From Octopus vulgaris (taxonomy: Eukaryota), in NCBI GenBank assembly GCA_951406725.2, contig OX597816.1:26722001-26786000 (forward strand): DNA of 64,000 nucleotides. Reading direction: 5' to 3'. Both the position numbers and the translations under genes were made by a program. The notes below the pieces were generated by a model that saw only the letters and a program-made list of their open reading frames with translations, did not search any database and was not told the origin of the DNA. Below, in pieces: positions 6,291-39,275 of this stretch; position 1 is the first letter of the stretch, and each line of letters starts with the position of its first letter.

Positions 6291-6511
6291 CCTCCTCCCC
6301 CTCCTTTTTTTTCTTTTTTCTTACTCTTCTTTTCTTATCTCTGTTCTTCCCTGATCTTTTTTGTATTCTCATGAAATAAAAAACTTTCATCTAATTTGTA
6401 AAAAAATATTTTCGCATTTTTCTCTTACTTTATTTTTATTAATTTTCTTTTATTTTTTTCTTTCCTTTTTTTCTTTTTCTAGTATATTATAATTTGAAGA
6501 GACTTCGCATC

Positions 6512-6706
6512 ATGTCTTCAAGTTGCTTTCTTCGACCACTTCCTCTCTCTATGCTCCTACTCATCTCATTCTCCCTTGTATATTTGGTCTTTGATGCATA
6601 TTCAGTCTACAAGATCCCATTTCGTCTTCTTCCACGGAAAACTGAGCATGACCGAAATCGTGACTATTCTCGGTGGCCAACCTACAAGCACATGAATTTC
6701 AATAAT
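6512..6706 (+). CDS. Coding exon 1 (MSSSCF...HMNFNN), contains hydrophobic signal-anchor
   Basis: Long pyrimidine tract + AG at 6481-6482, ATG 6512, donor AAT|GTAAGT at 6706/6707; [18 protein letters not shown] is hydrophobic; phase 0. Confidence 0.8.
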
Positions 6707-9700
6707 GTAAGTCAAACTGAATTTATACATTGATTTTTCTCATTATCTATCTGTTTTATTGAATTAAACATTTACAGCTGTGCAAACTGTACTGTATCAA
6801 CCTACTTTAGAAATGAATTAGCTTTGTAGGTAAGCTATTGAATCCCTTGCTGCAAGTTGAAATCCAGTATGGACATGTTCTGTATTGCCTTTTCACTCCA
6901 ACTATGTGATCTGGTATCTGACTCTGACTCACTTGCAATGTTATTTTTATTAAATTTGTGGGATCTTTTCGGTTTGAACGGCAGTTTTTTCTAGCGGTGT
7001 CATATGAAATTGTCACCCATAATTATGACCCTAGTATCGATCTATTGCATTTCAATCTATTTTAGGGTTAGGGTTAGGGGTGGGTGGAAGGGTATCTTTT
7101 TTCCTTCACAAATGTAAATAAACCCAATCTGTTTCTTAAACGAGGGACATATTCATACAGCACAGAATGCTTTTTTACCTCAAATACGTCAGTGATTGGT
7201 TGAAATTGCAGAAATTGAAGAAAAAAACAACAACAAATATCTTACAAACTATAGAATTTTCTCAATAAAGCCAAGAGAAAAAGATGTTTTATAAACACAT
7301 TCTACCAGTATACGAAGTTTAAAATTTTTTAGTTACCTAGAAATTATGTTAAAAACTGCCGTTCAAACCGAAAAGATCCAATTTGTGTCCTAGCCAGGAG
7401 CAAGATTTACATCTCATCTACTCCAAACTATGATACTAGAGCTAAATACCAACACTTTGAGAATCCTCAAGAGTCAGTAAGTGATAATTTAAAATGAAGA
7501 ATTTGTAGTTTTCGCAAGTATGGAAATTTAAATATCACTATGTTATCCAGTTGATAAAGCCTGTGACAATCAGCAATTTCTAACTAGTTTTGATACATAC
7601 AAGTTTTGAATAGCATAAAATGCGTTTAAGATATTCCTCAGAGTCTTCTTACTACTCGCTGGAAGAGTCTAACATTTGTTGGACTCACAATCACGAGGTA
7701 GTGAGTTCAATTCCCAGACCGGGCTGTGTGTTGTGTTCTTGAGCAAGACACTTTATTTCATGTTGGCCAACATGAAATAAAGTGTCTTGCTCAAGAAGTT
7801 CACTCAGCTGTAGAAATGAGTTGCAACGTCATTGATACCAATCTGTATTTGCCTTTGCCTTTCCCTTGGATAACATCAGTGGCATGGAGAGGGGAGGGTG
7901 GTATTCATGGGTGACTGCTGGTCTTCCATAAACAACCATGTACGGACTTGTGCCTTGAAGGGGAAATTTCCAGGTGCAATCCCATGGTCACTCATGACCA
8001 AAGAGGATCTTTACCCTTTACCCTGGTTATTTTACTCCAGGCCTACTCTAATCAAGCAGATCTGTGATCAAAGGCATGACAAGCTATGAAAATCCCATCT
8101 TTAAGAGTAAATTAGGCTAGATCAGTGGTTCCCAAACTTTTTAGAGTCGTGACTCACTATTTATCACACCAGTTTATGACGACCCACTTATAAGTCTTGA
8201 ACTATCTCGATAGACAGCTGTTAATCAAAGCTAATGCGTAATTTTATAACTTTTTGCGACCCACTAAGATTCCGTTCGCGACCCATCTGTGGGTCACGAC
8301 TCGTAGTTTGGGAACCACTGGGCTAGATCAATCTTGTTCTGATATGGCAATAGAGAGATTTTGATGATTGATATTCCTTGCAAGTTGAACGACTAAATAG
8401 AAGCTCCATGAAATAGGGAGGTAATGCAGTTTTACCTTAGTAATTGCTGTCATGGCATCACCATTCATGAATAAGATAACTAGTTCTTTATCAGTTGGAA
8501 GGTTGTAACATTCCAGATCTTTGTCTTTGATAACATGATTTCCAAGACATTAGTTTTTCATTCATATGTATATCTATTTCTTTACTACCCACAAGGGGCT
8601 AAACACGGAAGGGACAAACAAGGACAGACAAAGGGATTAAGTCGATTATATCGACCCCAGTGCGTAACTGGTACTTAATTTATCGACCCCGAAAGGATGA
8701 AAGGCAAAGTCGACCTCGGCGGAATTTGAACTCAGAACGTAACGACAGACGAAATACGACTACGCATTTCACCCGGCGTGCTAACGTTTCTGCCAGCTCA
8801 CTGCATTATATATTTTTATATATTTATATATATATATTTTATACCCTTATATATTTTTACTCATGCATATCATTTTAACATGCTATGCTTTCCTTCACAT
8901 TTTATACATACACTCACATTCACTAACAGATATATATACACACACTCACACACACATGCACATATATAGTTTACATTTGTGTGTTTCAGGAATGGTTCAA
9001 GTTACACTGTTGGAACAATGAGAAAATTTCAATCTCTAATCTATATTCTGTCCTGAAGACACTAAAAATGTCTTCACTCAGTGAGTGCAGGTATGTCGGT
9101 CTCTGTAGATCTTCCTAGTGAACTTTCCTAAATGTTGGCCTATTTGTCATTGCCTCTACTTGTGCTTCTTTATTTCTTGCATCTTTTTTTTTGTCCATTT
9201 CCATATCTGTCTTTCTCTTCCTCTTTTCTTTTGCCTCACTGTCTTTTTCAACATATATTTAACTATTTATCTACATCTATCAGTATATTCTCTCCAACTG
9301 TCTGCATATTTGCACATAAGATTAATGCATGTATCAGTTCCACATAGCCCCTGCCCATTCAAAGTACCCCGGATCCCAGATAGTCCTGCTGTGCCTGAGG
9401 AGATCTGTTGAGTCAAGTACATGAACATGAACGTCGAAATAAATATCAATGGAAATAGGAGAAATGTGGCACATAAAAAGCACCATCCAAATGTAGCTGA
9501 TGCCAGCGCCGCCTCGACTGGTTTGTGTGCCGGTGGCACATAAAAAGTACTATCCGAACGTGGCCGATGCCAGCGCTGCCCCGATTGGCCTCTGTGCCGG
9601 TAAGACCATCCGAACGTTGCCAGCGCCGCCTTGGCTGGCTCCCGTGCCGCTGGCACGTTAAAAGCTCGAACCGATCGTGACCGATGCCGGACCCCCCGGC

Positions 9701-10066
9701 CCCTGTGCAGATGGCACGTAAAAAGCACCCACTCCACTCGCGGAGTGGTTGGCGTTAGGAAGGGCATCCAGCCGTAGAAACTCTGCCAGATCAGACTGGA
9801 GCCTGGAGCGGCCCCTGGCTTCCCAGACCCCGGTCGAACCGTCCAACCCGTGCTAGCGCGGAAAACGGACGTTAAACGATGATGATGATGTACACATGCG
9901 CATATATACATATCAATCAGATGGTTGCATTTCACACCTGTGTTAAATTACCATTTATTTACTATACATATGTTTGTTCATTTTTACATGTTTACCTGAA
10001 ACTTTTCATAGGTTTATCACACCTACAGTCATGAAGTGAATTCTTATGTGTTGGGTGGGATATATG

Positions 10067-10122
<56 letters not shown>

Positions 10123-10271
10123 ATATATATGTATGTATATATATATGTATGTATATATATATATATGTATGTATATATATATATGTATGTATATATATAT
10201 ATGTATGTATATATATATATGTATATATGTATATATATATATGTATGTATGTATATATATATGTATGTATG

Positions 10272-10305
<34 letters not shown>

Positions 10306-10427
10306 TATATATGTATGTATGTATATATATATGTATGTATGTATATATGTATGTATGTATATATATATATGTATGTATATATATATGTATGTATGTATAT
10401 ATATGTATGTATGTATATATAAATATG

Positions 10428-10466
<39 letters not shown>

Positions 10467-10644
10467 GTATATATATGTATGTATGTATATATATATATAT
10501 GTATGTATATATATATGTATGTATATATATATGTATGTATATATATATGTATGTATATATATATATATATGTATGTATATATATATATATACATCATCAT
10601 CATCATCATCATTTAACGGACGCTAAATGATGATGATGATGATG

Positions 10645-10675
<31 letters not shown>

Positions 10676-12552
10676 TATATGTATGTATATATGTATGTAT
10701 ATATATATAAGTATATATATATGTATGTATGTATATATATATATGTATGTATATATATATAAGTATATATATATGTATGTATGTATATATATATATATAA
10801 GTATATATATGTATGTATGTTAGGAAAGGCATCCAGCTGTAGAAACATTGCCAGATCGGATTGGAGCCTGTTGCAGCCTTCTGGCTCGCCAACCCTCAGT
10901 CAAACCGTCCAACCCATGCCAGCATGGAAAGCGGATATTAAATGATGACAATGACACATGTGTCTTTACATCTGTTTGCAGATGCATGGGGTTGTTTTAG
11001 CTTTTCTAATAAATCTTCAGTAATCAGTATTCCTGTGTACTGACCAAATTCACATAACCTTAGTTACACATATATCACTAAACACATGCAACATACCTTG
11101 ACTGTTACAATATATTTCCTATACAAACAGCCATATTTCATGATTCTCTTGTGTGTGGATTTTAGTTAATCTGCTTTGGTCTATTTCGTTTTTGGATTTG
11201 GTCTGCAAGATTCTTTATATGAGTTCGTGTGTTGAAGCATATTCTGTTGTGTCTGGGGAGAGTCATTCTCTTTTAGTGCCTTATAATTTAACACACTCGC
11301 CGGTAAAATTTCCACTTATTTCCTTTTTATTTTCTAAAATTTTCGTTGCGTCTTGCAACCTTTTCAATAGTCTTGAAATAGTCTTTAACACACTCACTGG
11401 TAAAATTTCCACTTATTTCTTTTATTTTTATTTTTCTAAAATTTTCGTTGCGTCTTGCAACCTTTTCAATAGTCTTGAACGAAAATTTTAGAAAATAAGA
11501 AATAAGTGGAAATTTTACCGGTGAGTGTGTTAAATAATAAGGCACTAAAAGAGAATGACTCTCCCCAGACACAACAGAATATGCTTTGGTTTAATTACAT
11601 TTCTGTTTTTTAAATACATATTTCTCTCTCCATCAGAGAACTATACGACAGAATCTCCAGTATATTCAGTGTAACTCAGAGGTCAGGTCAACTTGTGCTA
11701 CCATCCCCATTTGTTGTGAAAGTGAGAAAATGGTTAGGTGGGAATCCATCATTATTTGAAGAAGCTAAATATCAGGTAAGTAAAATGTTTAAATCATCAT
11801 CATCATCATCATCATCATGTCCAAGATAAATTTTTGTTTATAAGATTATAATTTTCTAGACTTTTAACTTTATCTTTAGAGCGTATCTTTTATCTAATAC
11901 TTGTTTCAGTCATTAGACCACGGCCATACTGGAGCACCATCATTAAGGATTTTAGTCAAGTGAATCAACCCCAGTACCATTTTACTTTAAAGCCTGTACT
12001 TATTCTATCAGTCCCTTTTGCCAAACTGCCAAGTTACAAGGACATAAACACACTAACACTGGTTGTTAGGTGGTGGGAGGAGACAAAGATACACACAGAT
12101 AGATATATATATATATAAGATGGACTTCTTTCAGTTTCCATCTATGAAATCCACTCACAAGGCCTTTGTTTGGCCCAAGGCTATAGTAGAAGACGCTCAC
12201 CCAAGGTGCTACGCAATGAGACAACCCAGAACCATGTGATTGGCAAGCAAACTGCTTACCACACCGCCACCTGTACAAAGTTTATATGTACATAACATTA
12301 TTGACTGATCTGATTTCAGGTGTTTCATTTCTGGATGTGTTGATGACCTCTGAATGAATTCACATTATGCACTTTTATTTCTAAACTTATTTATGAGCAA
12401 TAGAGCCAGACCAGTGAGAGTTAGTCAAAAAAAAAAATCTATATAGTGAGAATTTACAAAAAAAAACAAAAGATCAAAAGACGAATGTGTAAAGAACAAA
12501 CAGATGTATTAATTCAATGCTTGGGAAGTGAGGAAGTCTTTTACAATATACC

Positions 12553-12590
<38 letters not shown>

Positions 12591-13875
12591 ATTTAACCCT
12601 TTCATTACTGTATTTATTTTGAGATGCTCTGTGTTTCTTTCTATTATTTTAAGCATAACAAAGAATTTAGTAAAATAACTTAGTTATATGGTGGTGCCCC
12701 AGCATGGCCACAGCTCGTGAGCTGAGATAAAATAAAAAAAAAATAAAATTATCATTAAGCTAGTGTTAAGAACATAAACTGTGACTAAGGCTTGGTGGAA
12801 GATTTTAATTCAAAACTTATGAAAACAAGACATTTTACCACAGAGCCAGAGCCGGTTTTGGCCGGGTTAGTAACAAAAGGGTTAAAGGGCTAAAAAACCA
12901 CTAGGTGGTCAGCCGTATGCTAGAAGTAAATCACCTACGATCAAACTACTAAATATACACGTGTTAGAATTTTCTCTGATTTTTCAGATTTTTGTATGCT
13001 AGGCTACTGGTTTTAAATTGATATTAATTAAATTAATATTCAATTTATCTACCTCATAATTTAAATATATATATATATATATATTTTACTGTTTTTGTTC
13101 TCATTGTTCTGTCTTTTACTGATTTTACTTTTTTATTGTTCTCACTGTCCTGTTCTTGTTAACACTTTTACCCTCTGCAAAAAATCCCAAATTTTATTTA
13201 ATTTGCTTTGCGGGAAGGACTGTTTCAACGAAGTCGCGTCTTGCCTTTACCTTTGAAACGTGGAGTAGATGAAACAGGGGACAACTGAAGAAGGGAAATA
13301 TTCTTTATGTTGTACGTCTCGTTTCTCTGTTTGTTTGTTTTCGTTGTTTGAAAGAAAGTTCGTTTCTATGTTTTTGTTTTTTCGTTTCTCATTGTGTTCA
13401 ACGTTTTATTGATGTCCTGTACCCATATATGCATATGTATATATACATATACTTGTAGATATGTACATATATGTATATATGCATATATTTATATATTATT
13501 TATATGTGTGTGTGTGTAGAGTGTTAGGTGTGATGTACAGAAATGAATATTGAGAAAAAGAATTTTTTTTATATTAGCGCTTTCATTAGTCTTTCAAACT
13601 TACCAAATATAATTGTGAGCATACTGATATCTTGCTTATTTATATAAAACAGATGTTTTGGGGGGGATTTTGTTTATAAGAGAACATTGTTTTTTTTTGG
13701 GGGGGGGGTTGAGGCTTTGAAGACAATGGATGGATAAATAAATAGATAGATAGATAGACAGACAAACAGCCAAATAGACAGATAGATAGATAGATAGAGA
13801 GAGAGACAGACAGACAGACAGATAGAGAGAGAGACAGACAGATAGATAGATAGATAGATAGAGAGACAGATAGAT

Positions 13876-13946
<71 letters not shown>

Positions 13947-16900
13947 GATTGAGAGAGAGAGAGAGAAAGATGGGCAGGGTAAAAGAGGGAGAGAAGGGCT
14001 ATTCATTTTCCTATCCACCACTTTCATTTGTATTGAAAAGGTCTTTTTAAGGATTGTCAAAAAAAATAAATAGATAAAAGTAAAAACTTGTTTACTACTT
14101 GCACCATTGCTTTGAAATGGTTTTTAAGGGAAGAAAGAAAGAAAAGAAAAAGAAAAAATAGAGAATCTCTTATTATAAAAGTCAGATTTTAGCTGCCTCC
14201 CTTTGGGAGTTATAGAAATCTACAATATAGGATTTCTTCAATTACAATTTACCTGGCATTTTTAAGAGTACAATGCATCGCATCATGCCAGGTCCAGTTT
14301 TTAAAATTTAAACTCCAATTAAGCAAAATTTACAGAAAACTCACATTCTGGTGTGTGTGTCAAATGCTTTTCTTAGTCTGGTTTACACCACACGCAAACG
14401 CACACACACAGTGTGCAACCAATAAAGTGAAACTAGATGTAATATTTGTTTCTCTCTATCACGCTGATAGATACATGAGTAAAATGTATGGGAAGCTAAC
14501 ACATAAGAGTGAGTGAAAATGTTCTTGGAAGAGAGTAAATAGCCAGAGATAGTGATTTGAGGTACATTAAATAACCGTAGTGGCTTGTGTTAGTAATAAA
14601 GTAAACATACACTCATACATACATACATACATACATACATACATACATACATACATACATACATACATACATACATACATACATACATACATACATACAT
14701 ACACACACACATACACACACACATACATACATACACACACACACACATACATACATACACACATACATACATACATATACATACATCTATATACATACAT
14801 ACATACACACACACACACATACACATACACACAGTATTGAAGCTTGAGAACAATCAGATACATTTGCAACACATCTGTTGAAAATATTATTGTTCACACA
14901 CATACATATACATATATACATACAGACAGACAGACAGATAGACACACACACACACACACATGATCCAGCATGGCCACAACCTCAAGGCTGAAACATATAA
15001 AAGAATAACAGAATATAAATGTGTGCATGTGTGTGAGAGAGAGAGAGTGTGTGTGTATATGTATGTATGTATATATATATAATAATGCGGTTTTTTCAAC
15101 AGCTTGAACTAAAAGTCAGAGGGGAATGGGATAAACTACTTATATTAACTTGCTATAAAAGCAGGTAGTAATTTTATCTTGTCCTTATTCATAGTGCAAG
15201 TTTTGAAGAGTGCATTTCGATTTTAACAGCTATTTTTTTCAAAGCTATATTGGAACAGCCTAGAAGACGAGCCTCATCCTGAAAGATCTGTAGAACTCGA
15301 CAAGGACATCCTGAAAACCCTGGTGGAACAAAATCTCATCGTAACTGTTGAGGAACTAGCAGAGAAGCTTGGATTTGGTCATTCAACCATTCATTGACAC
15401 CTGTGTGCTATCGGAAAAGTTAGCAAATTGGGTCAATGGGTTCCTCACGAACTTTCCGAGTCTAATTGCATGCAGAGAGTAAATGTATGCTTTTCTTTGC
15501 TGTCACATCTCACCACTACTGCGCTATGTATATCTATATATATAAAACTGTAGTTGTGTGAGTGTCTGTCCCCTTCGATTTAGATTCCTAACTACTCCCA
15601 CATTTTGCGGTGCAGTTTAACCAAATTCGGGTAGCTTATAGTCGTGATTCATATCGAGCCCGTCTGAGTATTAGCGCGCGTCTACGATGAGTCTATGATT
15701 TTAAAAATAATTTAACATCATTTTTTATTCCATTTTAATGCATAATTTTTCGTGTGTCGATGGCGGCGGAGTTGGCGTCCACGCTCACACCTGCACCTGT
15801 GGGGAAGGGAGTGTAAGGAAATCAACGTCGTAATGCGTTGTCAAGGAGACCAGCGTTCTTTTAGAACAACGACTTCATGGCTTGAAGACACCAAAACAGA
15901 AATGGCTAAGAAAGCATCTACATGAGTCTACGATTTAAAAAAAATTTACCATCGTTTTTTTTCCATTTTAATGCATTTTTTCGCTATTATATAAGGGAAG
16001 TAACTCTCTAAAAATGTCTACGATGAGTCAACGATTTTTAAAAAAATTTACCATCATATTTTTTTCCATTTTTAATGCATTTTTTGCTATTTTTTGGCTA
16101 TAACTCTCTAAAAATGCTTATATAGTTATTTCCCTTACAAACCCGAGCAACGCCGGGCGATACTGCTAGTGTAGTATAAATCATATCACCAGCATAATTA
16201 CAATGGCCAATACAATTAACAGAGATTTAATTACAACTATAATCAATAGAAGCTAATTACAACTGTGCACAGATGGCTTCAGAAATCAGCAAAACAAGCA
16301 TTCAATATACCAGTTCTGTCACCATGGTGATCATAACCAATTGTGGCATAAGGACAGCAGTCTTGAGGGGAGAGGGAGTTGATTATATTGATCCCAGTTC
16401 TTGACTAATGTTTATTTCATTCACCCTGAAAGGATAAAAGCCAAATTCAACCTCAGCAACATGTGAACTCAGAATGTATAAAGAAGTGATGTTGTCCAAT
16501 GTGGTACAGACTCTGCCAGCATGCTGCCTTTTCCATGGTAATATATATCATAGTTAGTTATTATACAAACTTTTGAGTTATTGAGTTAACTTACCTTTAG
16601 TCTAAGCTCTTTTTCCTGGACAACATCTTTCACAATGTGAATGGCACAAAGCAAAAAGCTAAGGATGAGAATAAAAGGAAATTGGTTCTGTAAGACCAAA
16701 ACCATAGGATCATTGTTGTAGGGTGGAAATGGTTGCCGATTCAGTTCCACTGTAGTTCGATTGAAAAAATCTTCACCAGAAGCATTGAGATAAGTTATTA
16801 TAGCTTCAGTAAGTTTATACTGGAGATAAAAGAAACCAGTGTCACTATAACCTGTAAAAATAATTATTAGAAATAAATTCTTAAAAATTTCAAAAGATTG

Positions 16901-19900
16901 GAATAATTATAAGAACAATAAATTTCAAAAAGTTAAATAATTTTTGAGAAGCTACCTTCAGTGCACGATAATGTATATCAAGGATGCAAAAAAATTAGCT
17001 ATTCAAAATAAAAGGGTTACTGCTTCAACAAACACTTACACACGATAACACTTCAAATTACTTCATACATGGAAACACATAGCTTAGATGTTTTAGAGTG
17101 TTGCACTCCTGATTATAAAATTGTGGTTTCAATTCTTGGACCAAACATTTTGTTGTGTTCTTCAGCAAAACAGTTCATTTCACATTGCTCCAGTCCACTC
17201 AGTTGGTAAATGCAGAATCCGAGGAACCAGCCTTATGACTCTGTTGCTCAGGAAAGATATTTGGTCCTCTTGCTTTTTTTTATGACTTCATGCTAACCAA
17301 CAAAGAGAGACTCTACAAGCCAACACAGGGGCCTTTCTTTGACAAACCAATGAAGGAGTCTCCACTAAGCTTCTACAAAGCCAACAATGGAGCATCAACG
17401 TAATCTATGAGCAATTCAACCTGTTAGAAATAGTAACCAACCAAATCTCCCTCACAACCACCTCCACTATTTTAGAGGAGGACACATTGAATGATGTGAC
17501 CCTGAGTCCAGTGGACCCCGAGTCCATTGGTCCCTGCCAAAAAGACAATAGGGTAATGTTAGGAATGTCTTTCATCATAGCTAAATCAGAGTTTAGCTCG
17601 GTTAAACAACAGTAAATCAACATCAGAGCATACTCAGAAATCAGATTTGATTGAGGTTTATCACTGAATATTAACACTTTTTTTATTATCTCTTATTATA
17701 AAAGGCAGATTTTATCTGCCTCCCTTTGGGAGTTATAGAAATATACAATATAGGATTTCTTCAATTACAATTTACCTAGCATTTTTAAGAGTACAATGCA
17801 TCGCATCATGCCAGGTCCAGTTTTTAAAATTTAAACTCCAATTAAGCAAAATTTACAGAAAACTCACATTCTGGTGTGTGTGTCAAATGCTTTTCTTAGT
17901 CTGGTTTACACCACACGCAAACGCACACACACAGTGGGCAACGAATAAAATGAAAGTAATTCACTTACTGTAGTGAGTGATTCTTTCACTCTGCCTCCCA
18001 CTTCCTCTTTCCACACATAGACACGCAAATATATAAATAAAATTGTAAGCTAACGTGGGTGTGTGTGTGTGTGTGTGTGTGCGCGTGTGTGTGTGTGTGA
18101 GGGTGTGTGTGTGTGCGTGTGCGTGAGTGTGTGACAGGAAAGTTTTTTACAAGGAATATAAGACCTATATCCAAGTAGCAGAAAGATAAGACAGTAAGGT
18201 GTGATTTGAGGGAGATTTGGCTGCTATTTCTACCATGTCTAGCTGCCATGTAGGGGTCTCCCTCATAGGCTCATACATACATATATACATAGATAAGACA
18301 GTAAGGTGTGATTTGGGGGAAATTTGGCTGCTATTTCTACCAGGTCTAGCTACCATGTAGAGGTCCCCCTCATTGGCTCATATATATATATACATACATA
18401 AGACAGTAAGGTGTGATTTGAGGGAGATTTGGCTGCTGTTTCTACCAGGTCTGTTAGGCCTTCTCATGTAAACTCAAGCTTTCTCATGCCTTGAACATAA
18501 GACCAAAGCAGAGAATGTATTCTTTTATTCTTCTGCTTTTTCCAGCCATTGCTCTGTGGCCATGCTGGGGCAATGCCTTGAAGAATTGTAGTTTAATGAA
18601 TCAACTCCAGTTTTATTTTTGTAAGCATTGTACTTATTCTATCTGTTTCCTTTGTCAAACCACTAGGAAACAAACCAACATTCGTTGTCAAGCAGTGGTG
18701 GAGGACAATCACAAGCACAGACACGCACACACACACACATACATGCATACACATATACACACATACATACATACATACATATATATATATATATATGTGT
18801 GTATATATATATTGCAGCGTGGAAGGTGTTTGTAAGCCATTTAAGAAACACACAAAAACCGTTACATTCACTTCAACATCATCATCATCATCATCATCAT
18901 CGTTTAACGTCCGCTTTCCATGCTAGCATGGGTTGGACGGTTCAACTGGGGTCTGGGAAGCCCGAAGGCTGCACCAGGCCAGTCAGATCTGGCAGTGTTT
19001 CTACAGCTGGATGCCCTTCCTAACGCCAACCACTCCGAGAGTGTAGTGGGTGATTTTATGTGCCAGACGAGGCTGGCAGACGGCCACGCTCGGATGGTGT
19101 TTTTTATGTGCCACCGACACAGGTGCCAGACGAGGCTGGCAGACGGCCACGCTCGGATGGTGTTTTCTTATGTGTCACCGACACAGGTGCCAGACGAGGC
19201 TGGCGGACGGCCACGCTCGGATGGTGTTTGTTACGTGCCCTCAGCACGGAGGCCAGTCATTGCGGTACTGGCTACGGTCACATTCGGATGGTTTTCTTAT
19301 GTGCCACCGGCACTGGTACCACAAGGATTTCCAACCTGGAACTTCTCAGAACGTAAAAAGCTACAGTAACACCCCTCCCCCTTTGTGGTTAGCCATATTG
19401 AGATGGCTATTATACTTTACATCTCTAAAAATGCTTATATAATTATTTCCCTTACAAACCCGAGCAACGCCGGGCGATACTGCTAGTAGAAATAAATTTA
19501 AATTTAATTTGCCGCGCTTTGAGACCGCGACCTGTTCACTGACAAAAATATCGTGCTAACAGGTCGCGGTCTCAAAGCGACGAAAATATTTTGACAAATT
19601 AAATTTAAATGTTGAAGTGAATCTAACGGTTTTTGTGTGTTTCTTAAATGGCTTATAAACACCTTCAACGCTGCAACTGTTTTCGTTCCAGCACACGATC
19701 TCAGATCAAGTCACTTGCTATGCAAGTACATCTCTGTAACTATATATATATTTATATATATATATATATATGTATATTGGTAAAAACAGTAAGATAACAA
19801 AAGAAAGAAAGAGACCTCAATATTATGTAAATAGAGCAAATCTTTATATATAAAAGTGAGGTTGTGTGTCTGTCTCCTACGATTTACATTCCTAACTACT

Positions 19901-22900
19901 CCCACATTTTGCGGTGCAGTTTAACCAAAACTGGGTATCTTATAGTCGTGATTCATATCGAGACCGTCTGGGTATTAGCGCGCGTCTACGATGAGTCTAC
20001 GATTTAAAAAAAAATTTACCATCAATTTTTCCCATTTTTAATCCATTTTTGACATATATAAGGGAAGTAACTCTCTAAAATTTATTATTAAATCTCAGAA
20101 CGTAAAAAGCTACAGTAACACCCCTCCCCCTTTGTGGTTAGCCATATTGAGATGGCTATTATACTTTACATCTCTAAAAATGCTTATATAATTATTTCCC
20201 TTACAAACCCGAGCAACGCCGGGCGATACTGCTAGTAAGAAATAAAAAATAATTTTAAAATGTTTTCCTGTCCTTTCTGTGTTAGTGTGTATGAAAATAC
20301 ACTCTTCCTCCTTGACTCCTTGCTCACAAGTAACCAGTGGCTATTGTTCTTTTTTCCTCTTGCTCCACAAGAGATAAGACCTACTTTTGCCTGTCACTAG
20401 TCACAGCCCCTTTCTCCAGCTTTCACCACTTCACATCCTTATGGCTTAACAGCCCTCACCTTTTGTTTTTACTGTTTTGTTCTTACTTTTCCCTTTATGT
20501 TACAAGTCTGTAGTTTCTCCTTCTCATCAAATTTCTCATTTCAGGTGTCCCTAAATCTCTGACCATATAAAAGATCCTTAAGCTTCCAGATTGGTCTGCT
20601 TCTAGGCAACATTCTGGCCTGAAGTCTAAAGTCACTGATGACTAGTCTATAGTGGAGTACATTCTTCACCCAGGAAGGTCTTTGCATTTATGGATGACCA
20701 TTGTCTGGTGAGAATGTAATCAACCTGGCTAGCATGGTCACCCGATTGATGGGTTATCAGGTGACTGGCTGGTTTACTGAAGTAGGTGTAACTTCATTAA
20801 GTTATTTGCATCGCAGAACTCCAGTAGCCTTGTTCCCTCTTTGTTTCAGGGACCAATTCCTTCCCTGACCCCCATGTACTTCACAGAGAGTACCTGGCTG
20901 CTGCCCAACATGTCCATTGAAATCACCAGCCATAAAGATGAGATTATTGTCATTTCTCTTTGGATAACCTGCAGAAGGTTATCGTAAAAGCGGTTCTTCT
21001 GTTCATTTGGTAACCCTGCCTGGGGCACATAGGCAAAGATAATTGTTGCTGTATGATTCTGCAAATAGTATACATATCTTTGTATATATATTGATAGTAT
21101 GAGGCTATAGCAGAAGGCACTTGCCCAAGATGCTACGCAGTGGGACTGAACCCGGAACCATGTGGTTGGTAAGCAAGCTACCTACCACACAGCCACTCCT
21201 GCGCCTATGCACTCTTATTTCTAAACTTATTTATGAGTAATAGAGCCAGACCAATGAGAGTTAGTCATTAAAAAAAAAACTATATAGTGAAAATTTACAA
21301 AAAAAAACAAAAGATCAAAAGACAAATGTGTAAAGAACAAACAGATGTATTAATTTAATGCTTGGGAAGTGAGGAAGTTTTTTACAATACAGATATTGTA
21401 CAGATATAGACTTTACTAGGTTTACTTACTGGAATTCAGCTATCAACGTAAAACAGGAGTCTTCTCAAAAAGTGGTAGGAAGTCACTTTGCTTATTCAAA
21501 TAAATCGCTACTGTTGTTGTTTAACCCCAAGGTGTCCCAGCAGGTCCTGTTTTTTTTTTGCTTATCCAAACATAAAATATCTAAGATTATGTCCTTCTTT
21601 CTTTTAGATACTAGGCTGTGATTTAAGTAAAATTTGGCCATTTTCTTAGTGACGTAATCACATCATTGGCTCTGTTATTGATGACAAGCTTTTCAAGTAT
21701 TCTATATCCAACTGATGAACTTCATAGGTTGCAGGTTTCTGATGGACCAGTCAGTAGTTCACTGCATTTCTTATGAGAAGCATGATCAGGGATTATCTGT
21801 AACTATATGCTTATCAAATATTTCAAGGAACTTCGTTAACAAAGTATTGGTTTTGAAGTTTCCTTGCCAATATTCATCTCCATTGAGGTGATGAGCTGAC
21901 AGAATTGTTAGTGGTTAGTGTGCTGAGCAAAATGCTTGGCAGTATTTTGTCTGTTTTTACGTTGAGTTGAAATGCTGCCAAGGTTGACTTTACCTTTCGT
22001 TTTGGAGGTTGATAAAATAAATACCTATTTCTTTATTGCCCACAAGGGGCTAAACACAGAGAGGACAAACAAGGACAGACAAACGGATTAAGTCGATTAT
22101 ATCAACCCCAGTGCATAACTGGTACTTATTTAATCGACCCCGAAAGGATGAAAGGCAAAGTCGACCTCGGCGGAATTTGAACTCAGAATGTAACGGCAGA
22201 TGAAATACGTATTTCTTTATTACCCACAAGGGGCTAAACACAGAGAGGACAAACAAGGACAGACAAACGAATTAAGTTGATTATATCGATCCCAGTGCGT
22301 AACTGGTACTTATTTAATCGCCCCCGAAAGGATGAAAGGCAAAGTCGACCTCGGCGGAATTTGAACTCAGAACGTAATGGCAGACGAAATACGGCTACGC
22401 ATTTCGCCCGGTATGCTAACGTTTCTGCCAGCTCGCCGCCTAAATACCAGCTGAGTACTGGGGTCATTGAAATCAACTTACCTGCTCACTTGAAATTACT
22501 GGCATTATGCCAGAATTCAAAACCAATATTTATATCCGTACACTGACATACATTTATATCAATATATGAGAAGTTCCTGGCTTTGGCTAAAAGGAAATAC
22601 AGGAGGATCAGTTAATTATGATTTTATGCAACATATTTCCCCTCCCAGATTCACACACTTATTGCAGCAGTCCTTCAGTTTTTCTAAGGCCTGTAAAAGA
22701 ACTCGGAAGGTTAGACTTTCAACCAGGCCTTTTGCAATACTCTTAAAGCCTGGAACTTTTTAACACCTACTTACATGTGTGTGTGTTTCATAAGCTTCCT
22801 CATAGTTTCTATCTACCAAATTGCTCTTACATTGCTGTACTAGAAGATACTTCCCAAAGGAAGGTACTGAACATTAGGATCAAACCTGGAACCATGTATT

Positions 22901-23975
22901 TGTGAACCAAATAAGGGGAGGCTCAATGGCCCAGTGGTTAGGGCAGCGGACTTGCGGTCGTAGGATCGCGGTTTCGATTCCCAGACCGGGTGTTGTGAGT
23001 GTTTATTGAGCGAAAACACCTAAAGCTCCACGAGGCTCCGGCAGGGATGGTGGTGATCTCTTTCACCACAACTTTCTCTCGCTCTTACTTCCTGTATTTC
23101 AAAGGGGTCGGCCTTGTCACTCTCTGTGTCACGCTGAATATCCCCGAGAACTACGTTAAGGGTACACATGTCTGTGGAGTGCTCAGCCACTTACACGTTA
23201 ATTTCACGAGCAGGCTGTTCTGTTGATCGGATCAACCGGAACCCTCGTCGTTGTAACCGACGGAGTGCTAAAGAGAAGAACCAAATAACTATGCCAGCAT
23301 TCATTTACTCTGTTTAATACAATGATGCCTTCTGCTTGTCTTTTCTAGCACATCACTCTTTCCTTTAATGAATACACACGTGACAACACAATGTTTAATC
23401 CTCTTCGCTCAAAACGTCCTCTCCAGAAACCGAATCAACCACAAAGAGAATAGTGAGTATCTACAGAGAATTGTTTTGCTTGTCATCATCATCATTATTA
23501 TGGTGGGGAGTTGGCTGAAACATTAGCATGTTGGACAAAATGATTAGCCACATTTCATCTGTCTATATGTTCTGAGTTCAAATTCCACTCAGGGCTTTGC
23601 TTTTCACCCTTTCAGGGTTGATAAAATAAGTACCAATTGAACTCTGGGGTCAAAGTAAACTATTTACCCTCTCCCCCAAAATTGCTGGCCTTGTGCTAAA
23701 ATTTGAAATCATCATTATTATTATTATTATTATTATTACTACTACTACTACTACTACTACTACTACAGTGTAGAGCTGGCAGGATCATTAGCATGCTGAG
23801 CAAAATGTTTAACAGCATTTTGTCTATACATTCTAAGTTCAAATTCCTGCTGTGGTCAACTTTAATTTTCATCTTTCTGGGGTTGATGAAATGAAGTACT
23901 AGGCAAATACTGGAGTCATATCAACTAAAGACTCCTCCTAAAAAAACTGTTGGCCTTGTATCTAAGTCAGAAGCA

Positions 23976-24012
<37 letters not shown>

Positions 24013-24635
24013 AGAGATGATACAGTGTTATTCAGGATTTGATTGCATTCCTTTACATTAAGTTTTAATTCTGTATGGAGTCTGATTTGCTTTTTATTCA
24101 TCTGGGGGAATTAAATCAATTACACTACTCATTCCTTTGTGACATTTTGAGAGTTTGTTAAAGTGTCAGAAACAGTAGAGTGACTGACTAAATATGTCTT
24201 GCAATGTTTTGTTAGGTCTCTTTATGTTTGTTCTGAGTTCAATTTACAGTAAAGAAAAAAATTATTTTTTATTTCTTTTGTTTTTTTTTTCCCCTCTGCA
24301 GTGTGGAAAAATTATCTGAGAAGACTGGTCAAAACTGTGACTTTTGTAAATATTCAAAGTAAGAAAATGTCTTCAAAATTATTTTCAGATATTTTTGTTT
24401 TGTTTTTGTAGTTTTTTTTTGTTGTTTATTTGTTTTGTTCTTTTGTTATTTTTGTTCTTTTCATTTTTTTTCCTTATATATGTCTGGTGTAGTGGAAATG
24501 GTTGTATCAGTAAAGCGTCAAACCAAATGCTTTATCTCTCAATACCTTCAGTTTAAAATCCACTATAGATAATGAATCAAGGACTAGGAAATATATACCA
24601 ACATGGCTACAGCCTTGGAGCTAAAATGCTTAAAA

Positions 24636-24676
<41 letters not shown>

Positions 24677-25777
24677 TGCATGTATGTAATGCATCTCTCT
24701 ATATATAAACAGCAAAATGTCTGTCTGTGTGTGTATCCTTTATACAAATCTACAATTTTTCAGTTAGAGGGCTCGCACTTTCTATGGTCACTCAAAACCG
24801 TCCAAGGGTGGTCGTGCACATCTTTACATTTCCCCAGTCACCCCACAAAGCCATTAAAAAATCAATAGAAGTGACTGTTTTGTGAATTTTCTATCCAAAA
24901 CCCAATCAAAATGCCCGAAACTTGATACACCAATTGAATGCCGGCTAGCTGTATGTGATTGGTCGGAGATTTGGACAGTACTCGCGTGTATGTGCTCACG
25001 CACGCAGCTGTATATGCATGCACTAATACTATATATATATAAAATGTATGTATGTAATGTATATATGCATGTAATGTACGTATGAATGCATATATACATA
25101 CATGCATACATATATACACACTCTCAACCACTCACTCACTCACCCACTGATACACTCTACAAAATACCTTATCAAGAGAGATAGGAAAATTTTCATTGCT
25201 GAGTAAGATATCTACCACATGGTTGTTCTTTAGTCTCATTTCAGCCCTGACTAAGCAGAACTATGATCAAAGATATTCCAACCTTGACCATTCCATCTTT
25301 TTTTTTTTTTTTTTTTGTATATCTAGGCCTACATAGTCCAATATGTCCAGCCCATTTTAAAATTGTAGGATATGATTTGAGGGTGATCTAGCATCTCCTG
25401 CTAGACAGGTTGAGTGAGTATGTAGTCTCTGTCATTGTCTCATTATATATATATATATATATATGGCCGATGCCAGCGCCGCCTTGACTGGCTTCCGTGC
25501 CAATGGCACGTAAAATGCACCAATCAGATCATGACCATTGCCAGCCTCGCCTGGCACCTGTGCAGGTGGCACGTAAAAAGCACCCACTACACTCACTGAG
25601 TGGTTGGCATTAGGAAGAGCATCCAGCTGTAGAAACACTGCCAGATCAGACTGGAGCTTGGTGCAGCCTTCTGGCTTCCCAGATCCCTGGTTGAACCATC
25701 CAACCCATGCTAGCATGGAGAACGGACGTTAAATGATGATGATGATGATATATATATATATACATATATATATATAC

Positions 25778-25823
<46 letters not shown>

Positions 25824-26638
25824 CCCTGTACTTGAGGAGACCAATTGAGTCAAGTACATTAACATCAAAATAAATATCAAATGGAAATTGCAGTTGTGAT
25901 ACCTGTGCCAGTGGCACGTAAAAAGCACCATCCGAACATGGCCAATGCCAGTGCCGCCTTGACTGGCTTCTGTGCTGGTGTCACATAAAAAGCACCAACT
26001 GATCGTGGCCACTGCCAGCCTCCCCTGGCACCTGTGCCAGTGGCACGTAAAAAGCACTCACTACACTCGCAGAGTGGTTGGCATTAGGAAGGGCATCCAG
26101 CTGTAGAAACACTGCCAGATCAGACTGGAGCCTGGTGCAGCCTCCTGGCTTCTCAGACCCCAGTCAAACCGTCCAACCCATGCTAGCATGGAAAGCGGAC
26201 GTTAAACGATGATGATGATATGTGGTTAGGGAGCTTGCTTCCTAACTACATGATTTCGGGTTCAGTCCCACTGCGTGGCACTTTGGGCAGGTGTCTTCCG
26301 CTATAGCCCTGAGCCGTTCGGTGCTTTGTGATTGAATTCAGTAGGCGGAAGTTACTGCCATGTGTGTATATGTGCGTATAGCTGCTCAGTGCCTCTCCGA
26401 AAGAGAGAGAGAGGGATATACACACACAAATTGAAGGCAAGACATAAATAATAATCATTAAATATTTTTCCTTATTGTAATAAATTTGACCTACAGCTGT
26501 TTCCAGAAGTCATTATAGGTTTTCATCAGTCATTTCTGGTTATAACTAAGCAATTGCAAAATTTTCTTAAAATTTAATTCAATTTACAATTATATTTGGC
26601 CTTCAATTTTATATGATTTGATTTGATTTTAACCTCAC

Positions 26639-26695
<57 letters not shown>

Positions 26696-29600
26696 GCCCT
26701 CTCTTTCTCCCCCCCCCCAAAAAAAAAACTCACCAAAGCTTTTTCAACCTTCTTGTCATAATATAGTTACTGCTGAGTTTTCATTCCTTTTCTAAAACAA
26801 TTTTCCCACTGTGCAGCATAGTACCAATGACCAAATATTAAAGATTTAACTTGGATCATGTGAGTAAGTGGCCGTTATCAAATTTCAACACAATATCTGG
26901 AGAGTATTTGACCTGAAAACAATGCAATTGTTTTTCATGTGTGATAACCCAATTACAAACACTATAATGCTTCTATGAATCTCTGCCTTTTTTCCTATCA
27001 AATATCGCCCTTCCTCTACTCATTCTATTCCTTCCTCTCTTCCTTTCTTTCCTTCTCTTCACTTTAGTCCTCTATATCTCTCTTCCACTTACCTTACACT
27101 GATTCTTATTGTCTCTCTTCACCACCACCCCATCCATACCTGTACCATTCCTTTAGTGTGTGCTTTGTTATAACCAGAACTAACTAACAAAAGCAGCATT
27201 CATTTTTTTTAAGTCATTCAATTTTTTTCAACCAATCTATGGACCGTTTGAGTGAACCCATCAATTAGCAAACCTATAATGACTACTGCAAACAGCTGTA
27301 ATTGCTTTGATTTGTGCTTTTGGTACACTAAGATAACAATTTTTTTTTTGTGGTGGGGAGGGTCTTGTTTTTCTTCTGATATCACCATGTAATGAGGTAA
27401 AATAAAAGATTGGGTATTGAGAAAATTTTATTTTCCATTGAAACAAAAATAGCTAGTTCTTTTTGAAAAAATTGGTAGATTTTTCTAATAGAAACAGAAG
27501 GGAATGAAAAATATTTTACTTGCCATGGAAACCAAAATAGTTCTTTTTGAAAAAATTGGTAGATTTTTCTAATAGAAACAGAAGGGAATGAAAAATATTT
27601 TACTTGCCATGGAAACCAAAATAGTTCTTTTTGAAAAAATTGGTAGATTTTCTAATAGAAACAGAAGGGAATGAAAAATATTTTACTTGCCATGGAAACC
27701 AGAATAGTTCTTTTTGAAAAAATTGGTAGATTTTCTAATAGAAACAGAAGGGAATGAAAAATATTTTACTTGCCATGGAAACCAGAATAGTTCTTTTTGA
27801 AAAGATTTTGAGATCTTCCAATAGAAAATGCCCCAAAATTTTAATTCACCAATATTCCTAATGTCTCTTGCTAAAATACTCAAGGCAAAGGGAAGGATTA
27901 TCTGTGCATTCAGCACAATATGCATTTACATTTTTTTTGTTTTTTTATCTGCTTCCTTTTTCTTATTTCGCTGTAACAGCCTACACATCTTTTATTGTTG
28001 TTGTTAAGCAACAAGACGGGTAAGGGTGATTAGGTGATGGTCTAGGGTTTAGGTGCAGGAGATCCCAGACCTTGAGAAAAAAGAAAAACATTGGTCGTCT
28101 TGTAGTCAAGGGTTCTTCATCGACACCTGACACCAATGGGAGATGGCCCTCGAAGTCACTGGAAATGGAGATCTCCAGGTCCAAATTCTTGAACAGCACA
28201 CATCTTTTATGAACTATTCTGTTGGATTTGTCCCTTTCACTGCATCTCTTGAAGTTATGGCAGGTACTAGTACTTGCAGTTCTTGATGTTGCTGGTGGGT
28301 GATTGTCCACAGTACAGGGTGATTCAATAACAGATTTTCTAAACTCTGCAATCTGCACTTTCTTTGGATCATTCTTTCGAAATACCACTAAAACATTTAC
28401 TATGGCTGTGCTGAGCAGGTATTCAAAAGCAATCCTGTGATGATACTATCTGATCCTTTTTCTAAGAGGTGTGAAGTAGCTCGCCATTTGTTCAGAGATA
28501 TCTATTCCCTGTTTCATCGTATTCATCATCATCATCATTTAACGTCCGCTTTCCATGCTAGCATGGGTTGGACGGTTCAACTTGGGTCTGGGAAGCTAGA
28601 AGGCTGCACCAGGCCCAGTCTGATCTGGCAGTGTTTCTACAGCTGGATGCCCTTCCTAACGCCAACCACTCCGTGAGTGTAGTGGGTGCTTTTTACGTGC
28701 CACCGGCACAGAAGCCAGAGCAGGCTGGCAAACGGCCACGATCGGATGGTGCTTTTTACGTGCCACTGGCACAGGAGCCAGATGAGGCTGGCAAACGGCC
28801 ACGATCGGATTGGTGCTTGTTACGTGCCACCGGCTCGGAGGCCAGACGAGGCTAGCAAACGGCCACGATCAGATGGTGCTTTTTACCTGCCACCAGCACG
28901 GAGGCCAGTCAGGGCAGCGCTGGCTACGGCCACATTTGGATGGTTCTCTTATGTAGCTGAGAATTATTTCCAGCTTCTTTACTTCCACATCATTCACTCT
29001 TTGCTTTGTTTCCCTGAAGCTAAGGTCATGTTTCATAGATAACACTAGCAGTATCGCCCGGCGTTGCTCGGGTTTGTAAGGGAAATAACTATATAAGCAT
29101 TTTTAGAGATGTAAAGTATAATAGCCATCTCAATATGGCTAACCACAAAGGGGGGTGTTACTGTAGCTTTTTACGTTTTGAGATTTAATAATACATTTTT
29201 AGAGAGTTACTTCCCTTATATAATAGCCAAAAAATGCATTAAAATGGGAAAAAATTATGGTAAATTTTTTTTAAAATCGTAGACTCATCATAGATGCGCG
29301 CTAATACCCAGAAGGGCTCGATATGAATCACGACTATAAGATACCCGCTTTTGGTTACACTGCACCGCAAAATGTGGGAGTAGTTAGGAATCTAAGTCGT
29401 AGGAGACAGACAGCACACAACCTCACTTTTATATATAAAGATTAGCACATCATGCCTATCCTTCCACTTTGCCGCTACAATTCCATCATTTTGTTACATG
29501 CTAGAAGTACCAGCAGGATGATAAAGATCATCATCATCTGAAGACAGATTACATTGGGAATTATCATCGCCATCTTCGCTGCTGGAACTGCTCAGAATGT

Positions 29601-32600
29601 TTTTTCTTAGAACTATGAAAGAGATTCACTGGTACTCTGCTTTGATCGGTGTTCATTATGGGGTCTGCTGTTTTTGGAATACCTGGTATTGCTAATTTAT
29701 ATTTAGGTTTGCTAATTTAGATTATGCTAGTTTGCAAATTATAGATAATTAATAACCTGAAAAGAAAAAAATAAGGTTTAGTATGTATGTAATAGTTATT
29801 ATATCTCTAAAATTTCCACACAACCCACAGGTAGGTCGTGTGGTATCTAGGATGTAATATGAACTAGGGTACCACACGACCCTCCAGTGGGATGTGGGTG
29901 TCTAATACTACCTATGTGATGGTTGCCTCATGTATGGTATAGTGTAAGAAATATTATGCCGTTCATGTCAAAATTAAGATATCGTATTGGGAGCCTAAGA
30001 TAAAATGTAAAATGAGGCTCAGGAGCCAATGTGTTGAGATAATCTATAGAGTAGGCATGAATATTCCAAAATTGATCAACATGAATGGAAATTGTCGCTG
30101 TGATATCAGTGCTGGTGGCACATAAGAGAACCATCCAAACGTAGCCGTTGCCAGTGCTGCCCAGATTGGCTTCCGTGCCAGTGGCACGTAAAAAGCACCA
30201 TCCGAGCGTGGCCGTTGCCAACTACGCCTGGCCTCCGTGCCGGTGGCACGTAAAAAGCACCATCCGACCGTAGCCGTTTGCCAGACTTGTCTGGCACCTG
30301 TGCAGGTGGCACGTAAAAAGCACCCATTACACTCACGGAGTGGTTGGCGTTAGGAAGGGCATCCAGCCGTAGAAACATTGCCAGATCAGACTGGGCCTGG
30401 TGCAGCCTTCTGGCTTCCCAGACCCCAGTTGCACCGTCCAACCCATGCCAGCATGGAAAGCGGACGCTAAACGATGATGATGATGATCATCATCATCATC
30501 ATCGTTTAACATCTGCTTTCCATTCTAGCATGGGTTGGACGATTTTGACTGAGGGCTGGCTAGCTAGATGGCTGCACCAGGCTCCAATCTTGATCTAGCA
30601 GAGTTTCTACAGCTGGATGCCCTTCCTAACGCCAACCTCATCTGGCAACGTTTCTACAGCTGGATGCCCTTCCTAACACCAACCACTCCATGAGTGTAGT
30701 GGGTGCTTTTTACATGCCACCGGCACAGGGGCCAGTCAGGCAGCACTGGCAACGACCTCGCTCGAATCTTTTTACACGTGCCACCGGCACAGGTGCCAGT
30801 GAAGCGATGTTGTTAACGATCACGCTAATTCTAAAACTATAATTTAAACCTATTGAAACTTGTCACATTTTTGCTCACCATCTTCTTAGACCTACAATGA
30901 AATCAAGTGCCATACCTAGAAGCACTACTTAGATCTGGTAGAGGCTTTTTTCTTTTTTCTTTTTGTCTATTTCCTCCAATGTGACCTCTTGATAACTTGC
31001 ATCAACTGAATCTATGCAGGTTTGAACCCATTTAGAGAAATCTCCTTGTTTACCTCTTTAACAGTGTTATAAGTTGTGTTCTTTGTTTAATCATTACTAT
31101 TACTAACAGTAGAATCTGTCCCCAAATCCTATCCACACAACCAGTTAAGTTCTTTGTGGTTTTGCAATTTACTGTCTTAACTGAATATATCAACATATCT
31201 AACACTGTTAATATAAGGAATGCAACAAAGCTAATCATTATTTACTTTACTTTTTCTTCTAGTTTTACTGCTGAAGATTTGTTTGGACGTATTGAATCAA
31301 AACACTCATTCACAGCTGCAAATGCCTTTAAATATGATGCATGGCATGCTTTAGTTATTACAAGGAACCATCATCCATTGAAATGGTCTGAAGATATATT
31401 TTTAGACTGTATGAAAGTAGCTAGAGAATGGTGAGTTTACTGTTTTCTTTGTAAATATATTCCTTCAAAGGTAAGTTAACCATCAACCAGAATTATGAGT
31501 GCAACACCTTAATCCCTTAGCCGTGCATCCTCAGAACATGATGATGATAATGATAACGGTCTCAAATATTGCCACAAGGCCCACAATTTTAGGGGAGAGT
31601 TAAATCAATTACATTGATCCCAGTGTACAAATGGTACTGAGGAATTGCAACCGTGTTTCGTGGTCTGCTACCACAACAGCTCCTTTATAGGATCCAGTTA
31701 GCTCAAGACATCATCAGGAGGAACCACGTCCGGTTTCGGCCCCTACTCCTCTACCGTTTTCACGTGGCGGGGCCCCCCCCTTTCGGAGGTGTCTTCAGCT
31801 CTGATGTTGGGTGCATGTCTTCTTTCTTCTGTTCCCTGGCCTCTTCGATGTATCGTCAGCGAGTGTCAGCTGGTGACTGACTGACTTGTCAAATTTTTCC
31901 CTTTAAATACCTGCCGCTAGGCTCCAGCAGGCAGCCCATAGAATGAAAGGCAAAGTTGACCTCTGCAGGATTTGAACTTGAAACTTAAAGATGAACGAAA
32001 TGCTGCTATGCATTTTTCCCAGGATTCTGCCAGCTCTCTTACCTTAATAATCATCATCATCATCGTTTAACGTCCGCTTTCCATACTAGCATGGGTTGGA
32101 CGGTTCAACTGGGGTCTGGCAAGCCCGAAGGCTACACCAGGCCAGTCAGATTTGGCAAATGATATTATTATATATAGAAGTGAAGTTCTAACTGAAAACT
32201 GAAATTGCTAGTTTTGGTCAATGTGAAAATGCTGAAAGAACATTGGATCAGAAGATAAACTGTAGTACATTATTTCTCTCCCTCTTATTCATGGATTCAT
32301 TCTTTTGCTTTCTCTCATGAGTTTTCTATATTATATTTATTATTACAGGTATGATAAAGTACATTCAGTAGATATCCGCTACAAATTACCAACGTTATTG
32401 TGGGATCTGCTGCCCCATGCCAGTGCCAGCCAAGTTCATCCACATATGCATATCAATCTACTTCCAGACAGATATTATGGTAAATAGATTTAAATGAGAA
32501 ATTATTTGGTCATAAAGTCAACTGTATCTTCTTTATTTGTGTTCATTTTCCATTCTGATATTCCAGCATAAGTACCCAACTGCATCTCCCGACCACAAAT

Positions 32601-34567: not shown

Positions 34568-34620
<53 letters not shown>

Positions 34621-37600: not shown

Positions 37601-39275
37601 TGATCGGCACTTCTTTATGCAGCTGTCCTCATTCATAAGCATCACATGTCCAAACCAACATTGTCTTCTCTCTTGCATGCTACATTTGATTCCTCTTATG
37701 CCCAACTTTTCTCTCAGTATATTTGCACTTTATCGTATATGTGCACTGATGTTGCACATCCAACAGAGCATACTACCTTCGTTTCTCTCCAGTCTATGCA
37801 TTTCTTCAGCATTCAGATCCCATGTCTCACTACCATGGAGAATAACCATTCATACACAAGCATCATTCAGTCTACCTTTCATTCTGAGAGAGAGTCCTTT
37901 TGTTGCCAACAGAGGTAATAGCTCTCTGAACTTCCTCCACCCTAATCTTATTCTAGAAACAATACTTTCAGAGCATCCTCCACCATTGCTAATTTGGTCA
38001 TGTAGGTAACAGAAACTATCTACAATCTTAAGAGAGCCTCCTGGGCATTTGAGAGAATCTAATTCCTGTGTGCTCTTAGTGCTTATTGTTCCTGCACATC
38101 TGCCACATACAAAGACTACTCTACCTGTTAATCTACCTGTATTACCACTGCATCTCTTATGCGTCCATAGTTTACACTGGGTGCAGCAGAGGGAATTTCT
38201 TCCAAGTCCTTTCCTACGTATGGAGCAGGGCCATTTACCTGACTGAAAAAAAAGTTTTATCTTCTTACTAACAACCATTTTTGTCTTAGCTAGGTTAATT
38301 TTAAGGCCCTTTGATTCCAGGTTTTGTTTCCATACCTGGAATTTCTTCTCCAATTCTGCTAAAGATTCTGCAATAAGAGCAAGGTCATCAGCATATAGTA
38401 GTTCCCACAGGCACCCAGTTTTGAATTCCTCTGTTATAGCCTGGAGGACTATAATGAATAAGAGTGGGCTGAGAACTGAGCACTGGTGAACCCCTACCTG
38501 AATGCTAAATTCATCACTGTATTCATGGCCGACTCTCACCTTACTGACAACACCAGTGTACATGGCTTGGACAGCTCTAACAAGCCAATCCTCTACTCTT
38601 AACTTCCATAGAGACCACCATATAAAAGAGCGGGGAACCCTGTTGAAAGCTTTCTCCAGGTTGATGAAGGCTAAGTACAATGGCTTACTTTTGCAAGAAT
38701 TTTTCCTGCAGCTATTTCACTAGGAAGATGGCATCTGTGGTACTCTTTCCAAGCACAAAACCGAACTGTATCTCATCTAGTTTAATTCTCTTTCTAATCA
38801 ATTGAGTTATAACCTTCTCAGTAATTTTCATGACCTGGTCTATATATATATATATATATATATTTATAAATAAATTATATTAGAGATAAAACCACTATTA
38901 GGCAACTCAAACAGTGATAGACATAAACCAAAACATAAAAAACAAAAAATAAATATAATTAATATAATATACAATATATATATAAAATTTAAAATTTAAA
39001 TTATTAAAATTTAAAATTTTTTAATTTATATTTATAAATTTTTAAATTTTTAAATTTTACATATTTAAATTTTTAAATTTTACATATATATATTGTATAT
39101 TATATTAATTATATTTATTTTTTGTTTTTTATGTTTTGGTTTATGTCTATCACTGTTTGAGTTGCCTAATAGTGGTTTTATCTCTAATTTAATTTATATT
39201 TATACTGTGAAATTTGATTTAATCCTAAATCTAATTTTTCCCTGTAACTTTGGATATACTCCCTAATATTATTAT

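Follow-up and report, generated by a model that had tools for sequence, protein, structure and literature searches.

An orphan ABCA3 exon in an intron of Octopus vulgaris belongs to a duplicated gene fragment enclosed by Helitron ends

A solitary ABCA3-like exon that lies antisense within an intron of another gene in Octopus vulgaris is part of a block of genomic DNA copied from a complete ABCA3 gene on another chromosome-scale contig, and the block is bounded to the base by two non-autonomous Helitrons. The exon was found in a window of 64,000 nucleotides (assembly GCA_951406725.2, contig OX597816.1, positions 26,722,001 to 26,786,000 of the forward strand), to which all coordinates below refer unless a contig is named; this contig is referred to as C3, and that of the parent gene as C5. 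The explanation considered moderately probable is that the ABCA3 block was carried into the host intron by Helitron end bypass or by composite transposition. The orphan exon is thereby explained, and the claim that two genes are interleaved at this locus is removed.

The exon (16595..16851, minus strand) is a 257-nt copy of ABCA3 coding exon 3, of phase 1-0. Read on the minus strand from 16851 to 16595, its limits are tttttacag|GTT...AAG|gtaagt, where the AG acceptor is rich in pyrimidines and the donor is GTAAGT, and its reading frame of 85 codons is free of stops. The best match among solved structures in the PDB is ABCA3 (E 1.1e-13, residues 229-312), and the peptide is 91% identical to residues 176-260 of the Octopus bimaculoides ABCA3 protein P0001 (XP_052824141.1); a Pfam search assigned no family to the 85-aa piece. 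The initial annotation, which had described an intact antisense exon with canonical splice sites, no stops and an ABCA signature, was correct on each of these points. The exon product presumably comprises the last part of extracellular domain 1 together with the membrane stretch that follows it. Relative to octopus ABCA3 P0001 and to human ABCA3 (PDB 7w01/7w02), the copy represents 85 of 1,651 residues and has no neighbouring exon. As had also been reported, the exon stands alone: it is the sole match of each of four ABCA proteins (P0001, P0002, P0016 and P0017) in 124 kb of C3, comprising the window and 30 kb on either side, and a genome-wide search, made with a more stringent initial step, gave no further ABCA match on the rest of C3.

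The exon is matched at two places in the genome, in the window and on C5. The C5 locus is a complete ABCA3 gene on the minus strand (45,817,954-45,898,025), where 19 exon matches account for 1,638 of the 1,651 residues of P0001 and where the phase of exon 3 (C5:45873749-45874005) agrees with that of its neighbours, exons 2 and 4. Both the flanking exons and the second copy, for which the initial annotation had proposed a genome search with ABCA3, are thus located in this one gene. The duplicated block in the window (16170..17688, no strand assigned) extends beyond the exon to include part of ABCA3 intron 3 and part of intron 2; its first letter is T and its last letter is A. It corresponds to C5:45873324-45874979, from which it differs by 14 substitutions in 1,519 bp and one 1-bp gap (99.1% identity), and it has one 136-bp tandem unit fewer than the parent. 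This source block inside ABCA3 supports the suggestion that the exon is a recent duplicate or captured fragment. DNA searches with both block halves found two full copies of the block in the assembly, such counts being lower bounds. Because the block retains its introns, it was copied at the level of DNA. A retrocopy or a LINE 3′ transduction was rejected, given the introns on both sides of the exon, block ends that abut Helitron termini, and no poly(A).

Within the exon, copy and parent differ at three adjacent bases and nowhere else. The codon concerned specifies Ser in the window copy, Glu in the C5 parent, and Lys in O. bimaculoides and Argonauta; protein searches returned no ABCA3 protein from O. 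sinensis or O. vulgaris. The three-base change turns 16838-16846 into a perfect inverted repeat of 4 bp around a single base, and may represent an event resembling a template-switch mutation.

Both edges of the block coincide with Helitron termini. On the left is HelD (14166..16169, plus strand), a non-autonomous Helitron of ~2.0 kb with a 5′ TC that follows an A and a 3′ hairpin followed by CTAG. The block is flush with the 3′ end of this element, and the letter that precedes the block (16169) closes the GC hairpin and CTAG; the hairpin itself (-4.5 kcal/mol with DNA parameters) ends 12 nt before the CTAG end at that position. On the right is HelB (17689..20235, plus strand), likewise non-autonomous, which has a 5′ end of the same family as HelD and the same 3′ hairpin-CTAG, then T, its CTAG end at 20235 being the same as that of HelD at 16169. 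The block is also flush with the 5′ end of HelB, where the letters from 17689 are TCTCTTATTATAAAAG and the junction is A|TC. TC termini are present at both 14166 and 17689, and a TC start was found at 18 of 20 HelB loci, the window's own locus counted. The gene fragment is therefore enclosed by Helitron ends, from the TC at 14166 through the CTAG at 20235.

At least 40 near-identical copies each of HelD and HelB were scored. Over 913 bp, HelD departs at 5 positions from the majority of 32 sampled copies, and other stretches of the two elements differ from their copy majorities at 2/352, 4/559 and 3/636 positions. Both families are young and high-copy. Both elements are composite, with a complete smaller Helitron at the 3′ end (15533-16169 in HelD and 19841-20235 in HelB), and both carry pieces of other repeats. 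HelD also contains, at ~15250-15510, what is taken to be a scrap of a mariner-like transposase. The HelB family is ~1.8 kb in length, and the extra stretch of ~0.6 kb in the window element (18880-19495) consists of a common dispersed repeat and a duplicate of the final ~145 bp of the element that is 99-100% identical to 20093-20246; it resembles a recent insertion that was accompanied by a local duplication. The composite make-up of HelD and HelB suggests that capture of flanking DNA may be routine for these Helitrons. At two loci (L081 and L082, on C7 and C29), HelD is joined straight to HelB, CTAG to TC, with no block between them. Descent of the window elements from a HelD-HelB tandem family was considered and found to be unsupported, with 3 of the 10 nearest HelD copies in tandem versus 8 of 31 overall.

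The bases that adjoin Helitron ends elsewhere in the genome provide a standard for the two edges of the block. Among fetched loci, which were picked by likeness to the ends, a T follows the 3′ end in 56/56 distinct ends and an A precedes the 5′ end in 41/42, the remaining one following CTAG, and none of these 42 surveyed 5′ ends follows a plain G. By this standard, the left junction CTAG|T and the right junction A|TC are the usual ones for the HelD and HelB families, and both are described as marks of Helitrons (PMC4778049; PMC4067079). The unit 14166-20235 as a whole occupies an A|T site in an A/G-rich tract and has no target-site duplication. The first 14 bases of the block obtain a target-flank score of 3.7, compared with a leave-one-out median of 2.7 for 34 real flanks, and 6.9% of 75,065 background T sites score as high. 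Training was on these 34 of the 56 flanks, with 12 TA-repeat flanks, 9 flanks that are the next Helitron, and the window site left out. The block start fits the target preference of these elements, which lends modest support, the motif being mostly AT richness. At the parent locus on C5, the site corresponding to the left edge is G|T and has no Helitron, and the right edge is an A|T that lies at most 2 nt from a Helitron remnant of ~125 bp, at its eroded 5′ end. The new end of the block has neither a hairpin nor CTRR.

At least 150 Helitron Rep matches above the Pfam cut-off are present in the genome, many of them in frames of 1,300-1,750 codons. One of ten Rep loci that were fetched (L113) matches Helitron_like_N (E 9e-58) and PIF1 (E 6e-57), with the helicase match ending at profile position 174 of 223. 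The 5′ end of this locus is that of HelB and HelD (96% over 72 nt), and its 3′ hairpin-CTAG end is also alike. A related 3′ end was found in seven of the remaining nine loci, and neither end in two. Clusters of Rep matches at a spacing of tens of kb occur on C29 (~27.64-27.83 Mb) and C7 (~58.76-58.96 Mb), and are possibly arrays of autonomous elements.

The host gene (LOC115209428-like, 6483..44619, plus strand) has 12 coding exons that encode 469 aa, and the ABCA3 exon lies antisense in its coding intron 3 (11776..23348, plus strand), a GT-AG intron. Host exons match O. sinensis LOC115209428 (P0003) virtually letter for letter, and conservation extends to Argonauta (87%, in the exon searched) and Lingula (73%). 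Exons 3 and 4 are directly joined in those protein models of O. sinensis and O. bimaculoides that were examined. Pfam and PDB searches with the host protein both gave no match. An O. bimaculoides member of this protein is named galactose-1-phosphate uridylyltransferase by one source, and includes an H-x-H-x-H-like stretch (QVHPHMH). Host intron 3 also contains a 184-bp direct repeat (12366-12548 and 21206-21389) whose copies are 95% identical and 8.8 kb apart; it occurs at full length at these two places only in the genome, and its 3′ 108 bp is a dispersed repeat. The repeat flanks the Helitron unit on both sides and is probably a local duplication of greater age; it is unrelated to the edges of the block.

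Capture by end bypass or composite transposition would proceed in four steps. HelD would first have landed immediately next to ABCA3 exon 3 in one of the haplotypes, and Rep would then have started at the 5′ TC of HelD and bypassed its hairpin-CTAG. The block would have been copied until the reaction stopped. The stop may have been the 5′ end of the next Helitron, of which the parent has an eroded example within 2 nt of the block's end, or else the 3′ end of a HelB that had inserted at this place. The product would finally have entered an A|T site in the A-rich tract of the host intron. Since the new end of the block has no hairpin or CTRR, the short version of this route needs termination at a 5′ end. 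The weak point of end bypass is that the progenitor HelD is absent from the assembled parent, where it would sit at a G|T site. As no surveyed 5′ end follows a plain G, the first step calls for an allele that has not been seen or for insertion at an atypical site. It also counts against capture that the assembly has a single captured copy, with no further copies to show mobility of the unit.

The alternative that survives best, although it is unlikely, is an artefact of assembly, in which the exon flanked by HelD and HelB lies on a second ABCA3 haplotype and the assembler crossed the 2-kb repeats at a plain tandem on C3. The flanking repeats are indeed ~2 kb in length with copies ~99% alike, the plain HelD-HelB tandems on C7 and C29 exist, direct 3′-to-5′ joints are common in reads, and a block difference of 0.9% may fall within the range possible for alleles. 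Such an artefact presupposes an assembly error on top of two insertions that occurred independently around the exon, in a window that has no N gap. Moreover, apart from the block, the C3 region (124 kb) and the C5 region (120 kb) share sequence of at least 250 bp at 96% identity or more in five repeat matches only.

Contigs from four short-read runs (X1, X2, X6 and X7), which show presence only, were compared with 15100-18000 and bear on this question from both sides. The X1 and X2 contigs, from two studies with two species labels, open at 16151 with 19 letters of Helitron and pass directly into the block, a length below the 31-letter standard for bridging. This supports the left junction as real DNA that exists beyond the present assembly, unless the assembly was itself built from X2; the contigs do not place the junction on C3. 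Before the block, X6 has 197 and X7 has 195 other letters, as expected of the parent flank, the letters themselves being unseen. Beyond 17689, 24 unmatched letters are present in X2 and X6, and the X7 contig stops exactly there. In the four runs, no contig has the block running into HelB and none spans the whole unit; direct joints from 16169 to ~17689 are found in X1, X2 and X6, as tandem paralogues predict. In favour of an artefact, a contig of X6 combines window-type variants with the other left flank. On the opposite side, X7 has both variants of a 4-SNP cluster (16270-16318) at nearly equal depths (3.7 and 3.8), which together with the break at 17689 fits two loci, as it would also fit a heterozygote. 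The depth of the flank-bearing contig in X7 is 6.45 and that of the block is 8.09, against rough expectations of ~5 for two loci and 8 for one locus. A reading of X1 and X2 as proof of a Helitron at the ABCA3 locus, and of X6 and X7 as lacking the copy, was dropped, as unbranched contigs may be mosaics of two loci. Overall, a real capture is more likely than misassembly. The depth of X1 at 17177-17683 is 3-5x that of the exon part, though the assembly has two copies, and this excess is perhaps due to an expanded tandem unit in that sample.

Next in probability, and doubtful, is a repair-driven copy, in which a break at a resident HelD-HelB junction was mended from ABCA3 by filler DNA or ectopic gene conversion; it is equally doubtful that Helitron homology or microhomology primed such a repair. 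The empty junction exists in the form of the paralogues L081 and L082, a T-rich end at the right edge and the Helitron 5′ ends that follow it are alike in parent and copy, and a filler model has been published (PMC6544945). At the left edge, however, the window shares 1 nt (G) with the parent flank. Repair would need neither the coincidence of both edges with the terminal bases of the Helitrons nor the fit of the left edge to the target motif, and the window elements are not clearly nearer to tandem than to solo copies.

Lower still in probability is a split-target capture. In this proposal, Rep would have opened a CTAG|TC junction in head-to-tail order and attached its two ends to separate host sites 1.65 kb apart, the 3′ end at a T and the 5′ end at an A, so that the host block was trapped inside the junction in one reaction. 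Each junction is standard by itself, neither an insertion at G|T nor a second insertion is required, the head-to-tail precursor junction is common, and circles with head-to-tail junctions are known for Helraiser (PMC4778049). This proposal rests on one case, a literature search found no precedent, and ordinary end bypass would give an identical product; nor is there a sign of descent from the tandem family. If true, it would be a route of capture in octopus Helitrons distinct from end bypass and from filler repair. Finally, the option raised in the initial annotation of interleaved genes, with the exon as part of a giant ABCA gene on the strand of C3 opposite to the host, is suggested by the intact splice sites and frame, yet it was rejected as extremely improbable and, as far as the assembled sequence can tell, is refuted in the assembly, where C3 has no other ABCA exon in 124 kb or match elsewhere, the complete gene on C5 has its own copy of the exon, and the flanking introns are 99% identical to C5 up to the transposon ends.

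Capture by Helitrons, if it occurred as proposed, would be recent. With a calibration in which a JC distance of 0.09 equals 25 Myr, quoted in the O. vulgaris repeat paper (PMC13282606), the 0.5-0.7% divergence of HelD and HelB from their family majorities would correspond to an age of about 1.5-2 Myr. The difference of 0.92% between block and parent implies an age of at most ~1.3 Myr, or less if the difference is partly allelic, and the capture may be dated to roughly 1-2 Myr ago or younger. Its youth accounts for the intact look of the exon: few changes are expected at such an age, so the open frame and the preserved splice sites do not point to selection. Being antisense to both the host gene and the Helitrons, with no neighbouring exons and an asymmetric phase, it is predicted to be neutral, and the captured exon is probably functionless, no function being indicated.

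The capture of gene fragments by Helitrons is already well known from maize, bats and insects. A literature search, with most subscription journals and some supplements outside its range, found no cephalopod case, and the word 'capture' is absent from the main text of the O. vulgaris repeat paper (PMC13282606). The locus described here would be a clean, base-exact and young example in a cephalopod, and copies of this kind can cause errors in the annotation of genes and in SNP calls at ABCA3.

One of the closest known systems is Helraiser, for which capture of a 1.6-kb cassette by read-through made up ~11.7% of events in the assay described (PMC4778049). The octopus unit shares with it the A|TC and CTAG|T junctions, a preference for an AT-rich 3′ flank, and ~1.6 kb captured past an intact 3′ end; Helraiser is experimental and autonomous, whereas the octopus elements are non-autonomous and the event is deduced from sequence. 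HelibatN539 of vespertilionid bats is reported as a composite capture between two Helitrons (PMC4224331). In that account, flanking ends are present at the parental locus, unlike the octopus parent, which has no upstream Helitron and an eroded 5′ remnant downstream, and, also unlike HelibatN539, the octopus unit is found in one copy only. In maize, silkworm and other insects (PMC6544945, PMC4067079), non-autonomous Helitrons carry single intron-bearing gene fragments, as in the octopus, and form stepwise composite elements and clusters of Helitrons side by side. The maize and insect fragments are often amplified and lie inside one element, whereas the octopus block is located at the junction of two.
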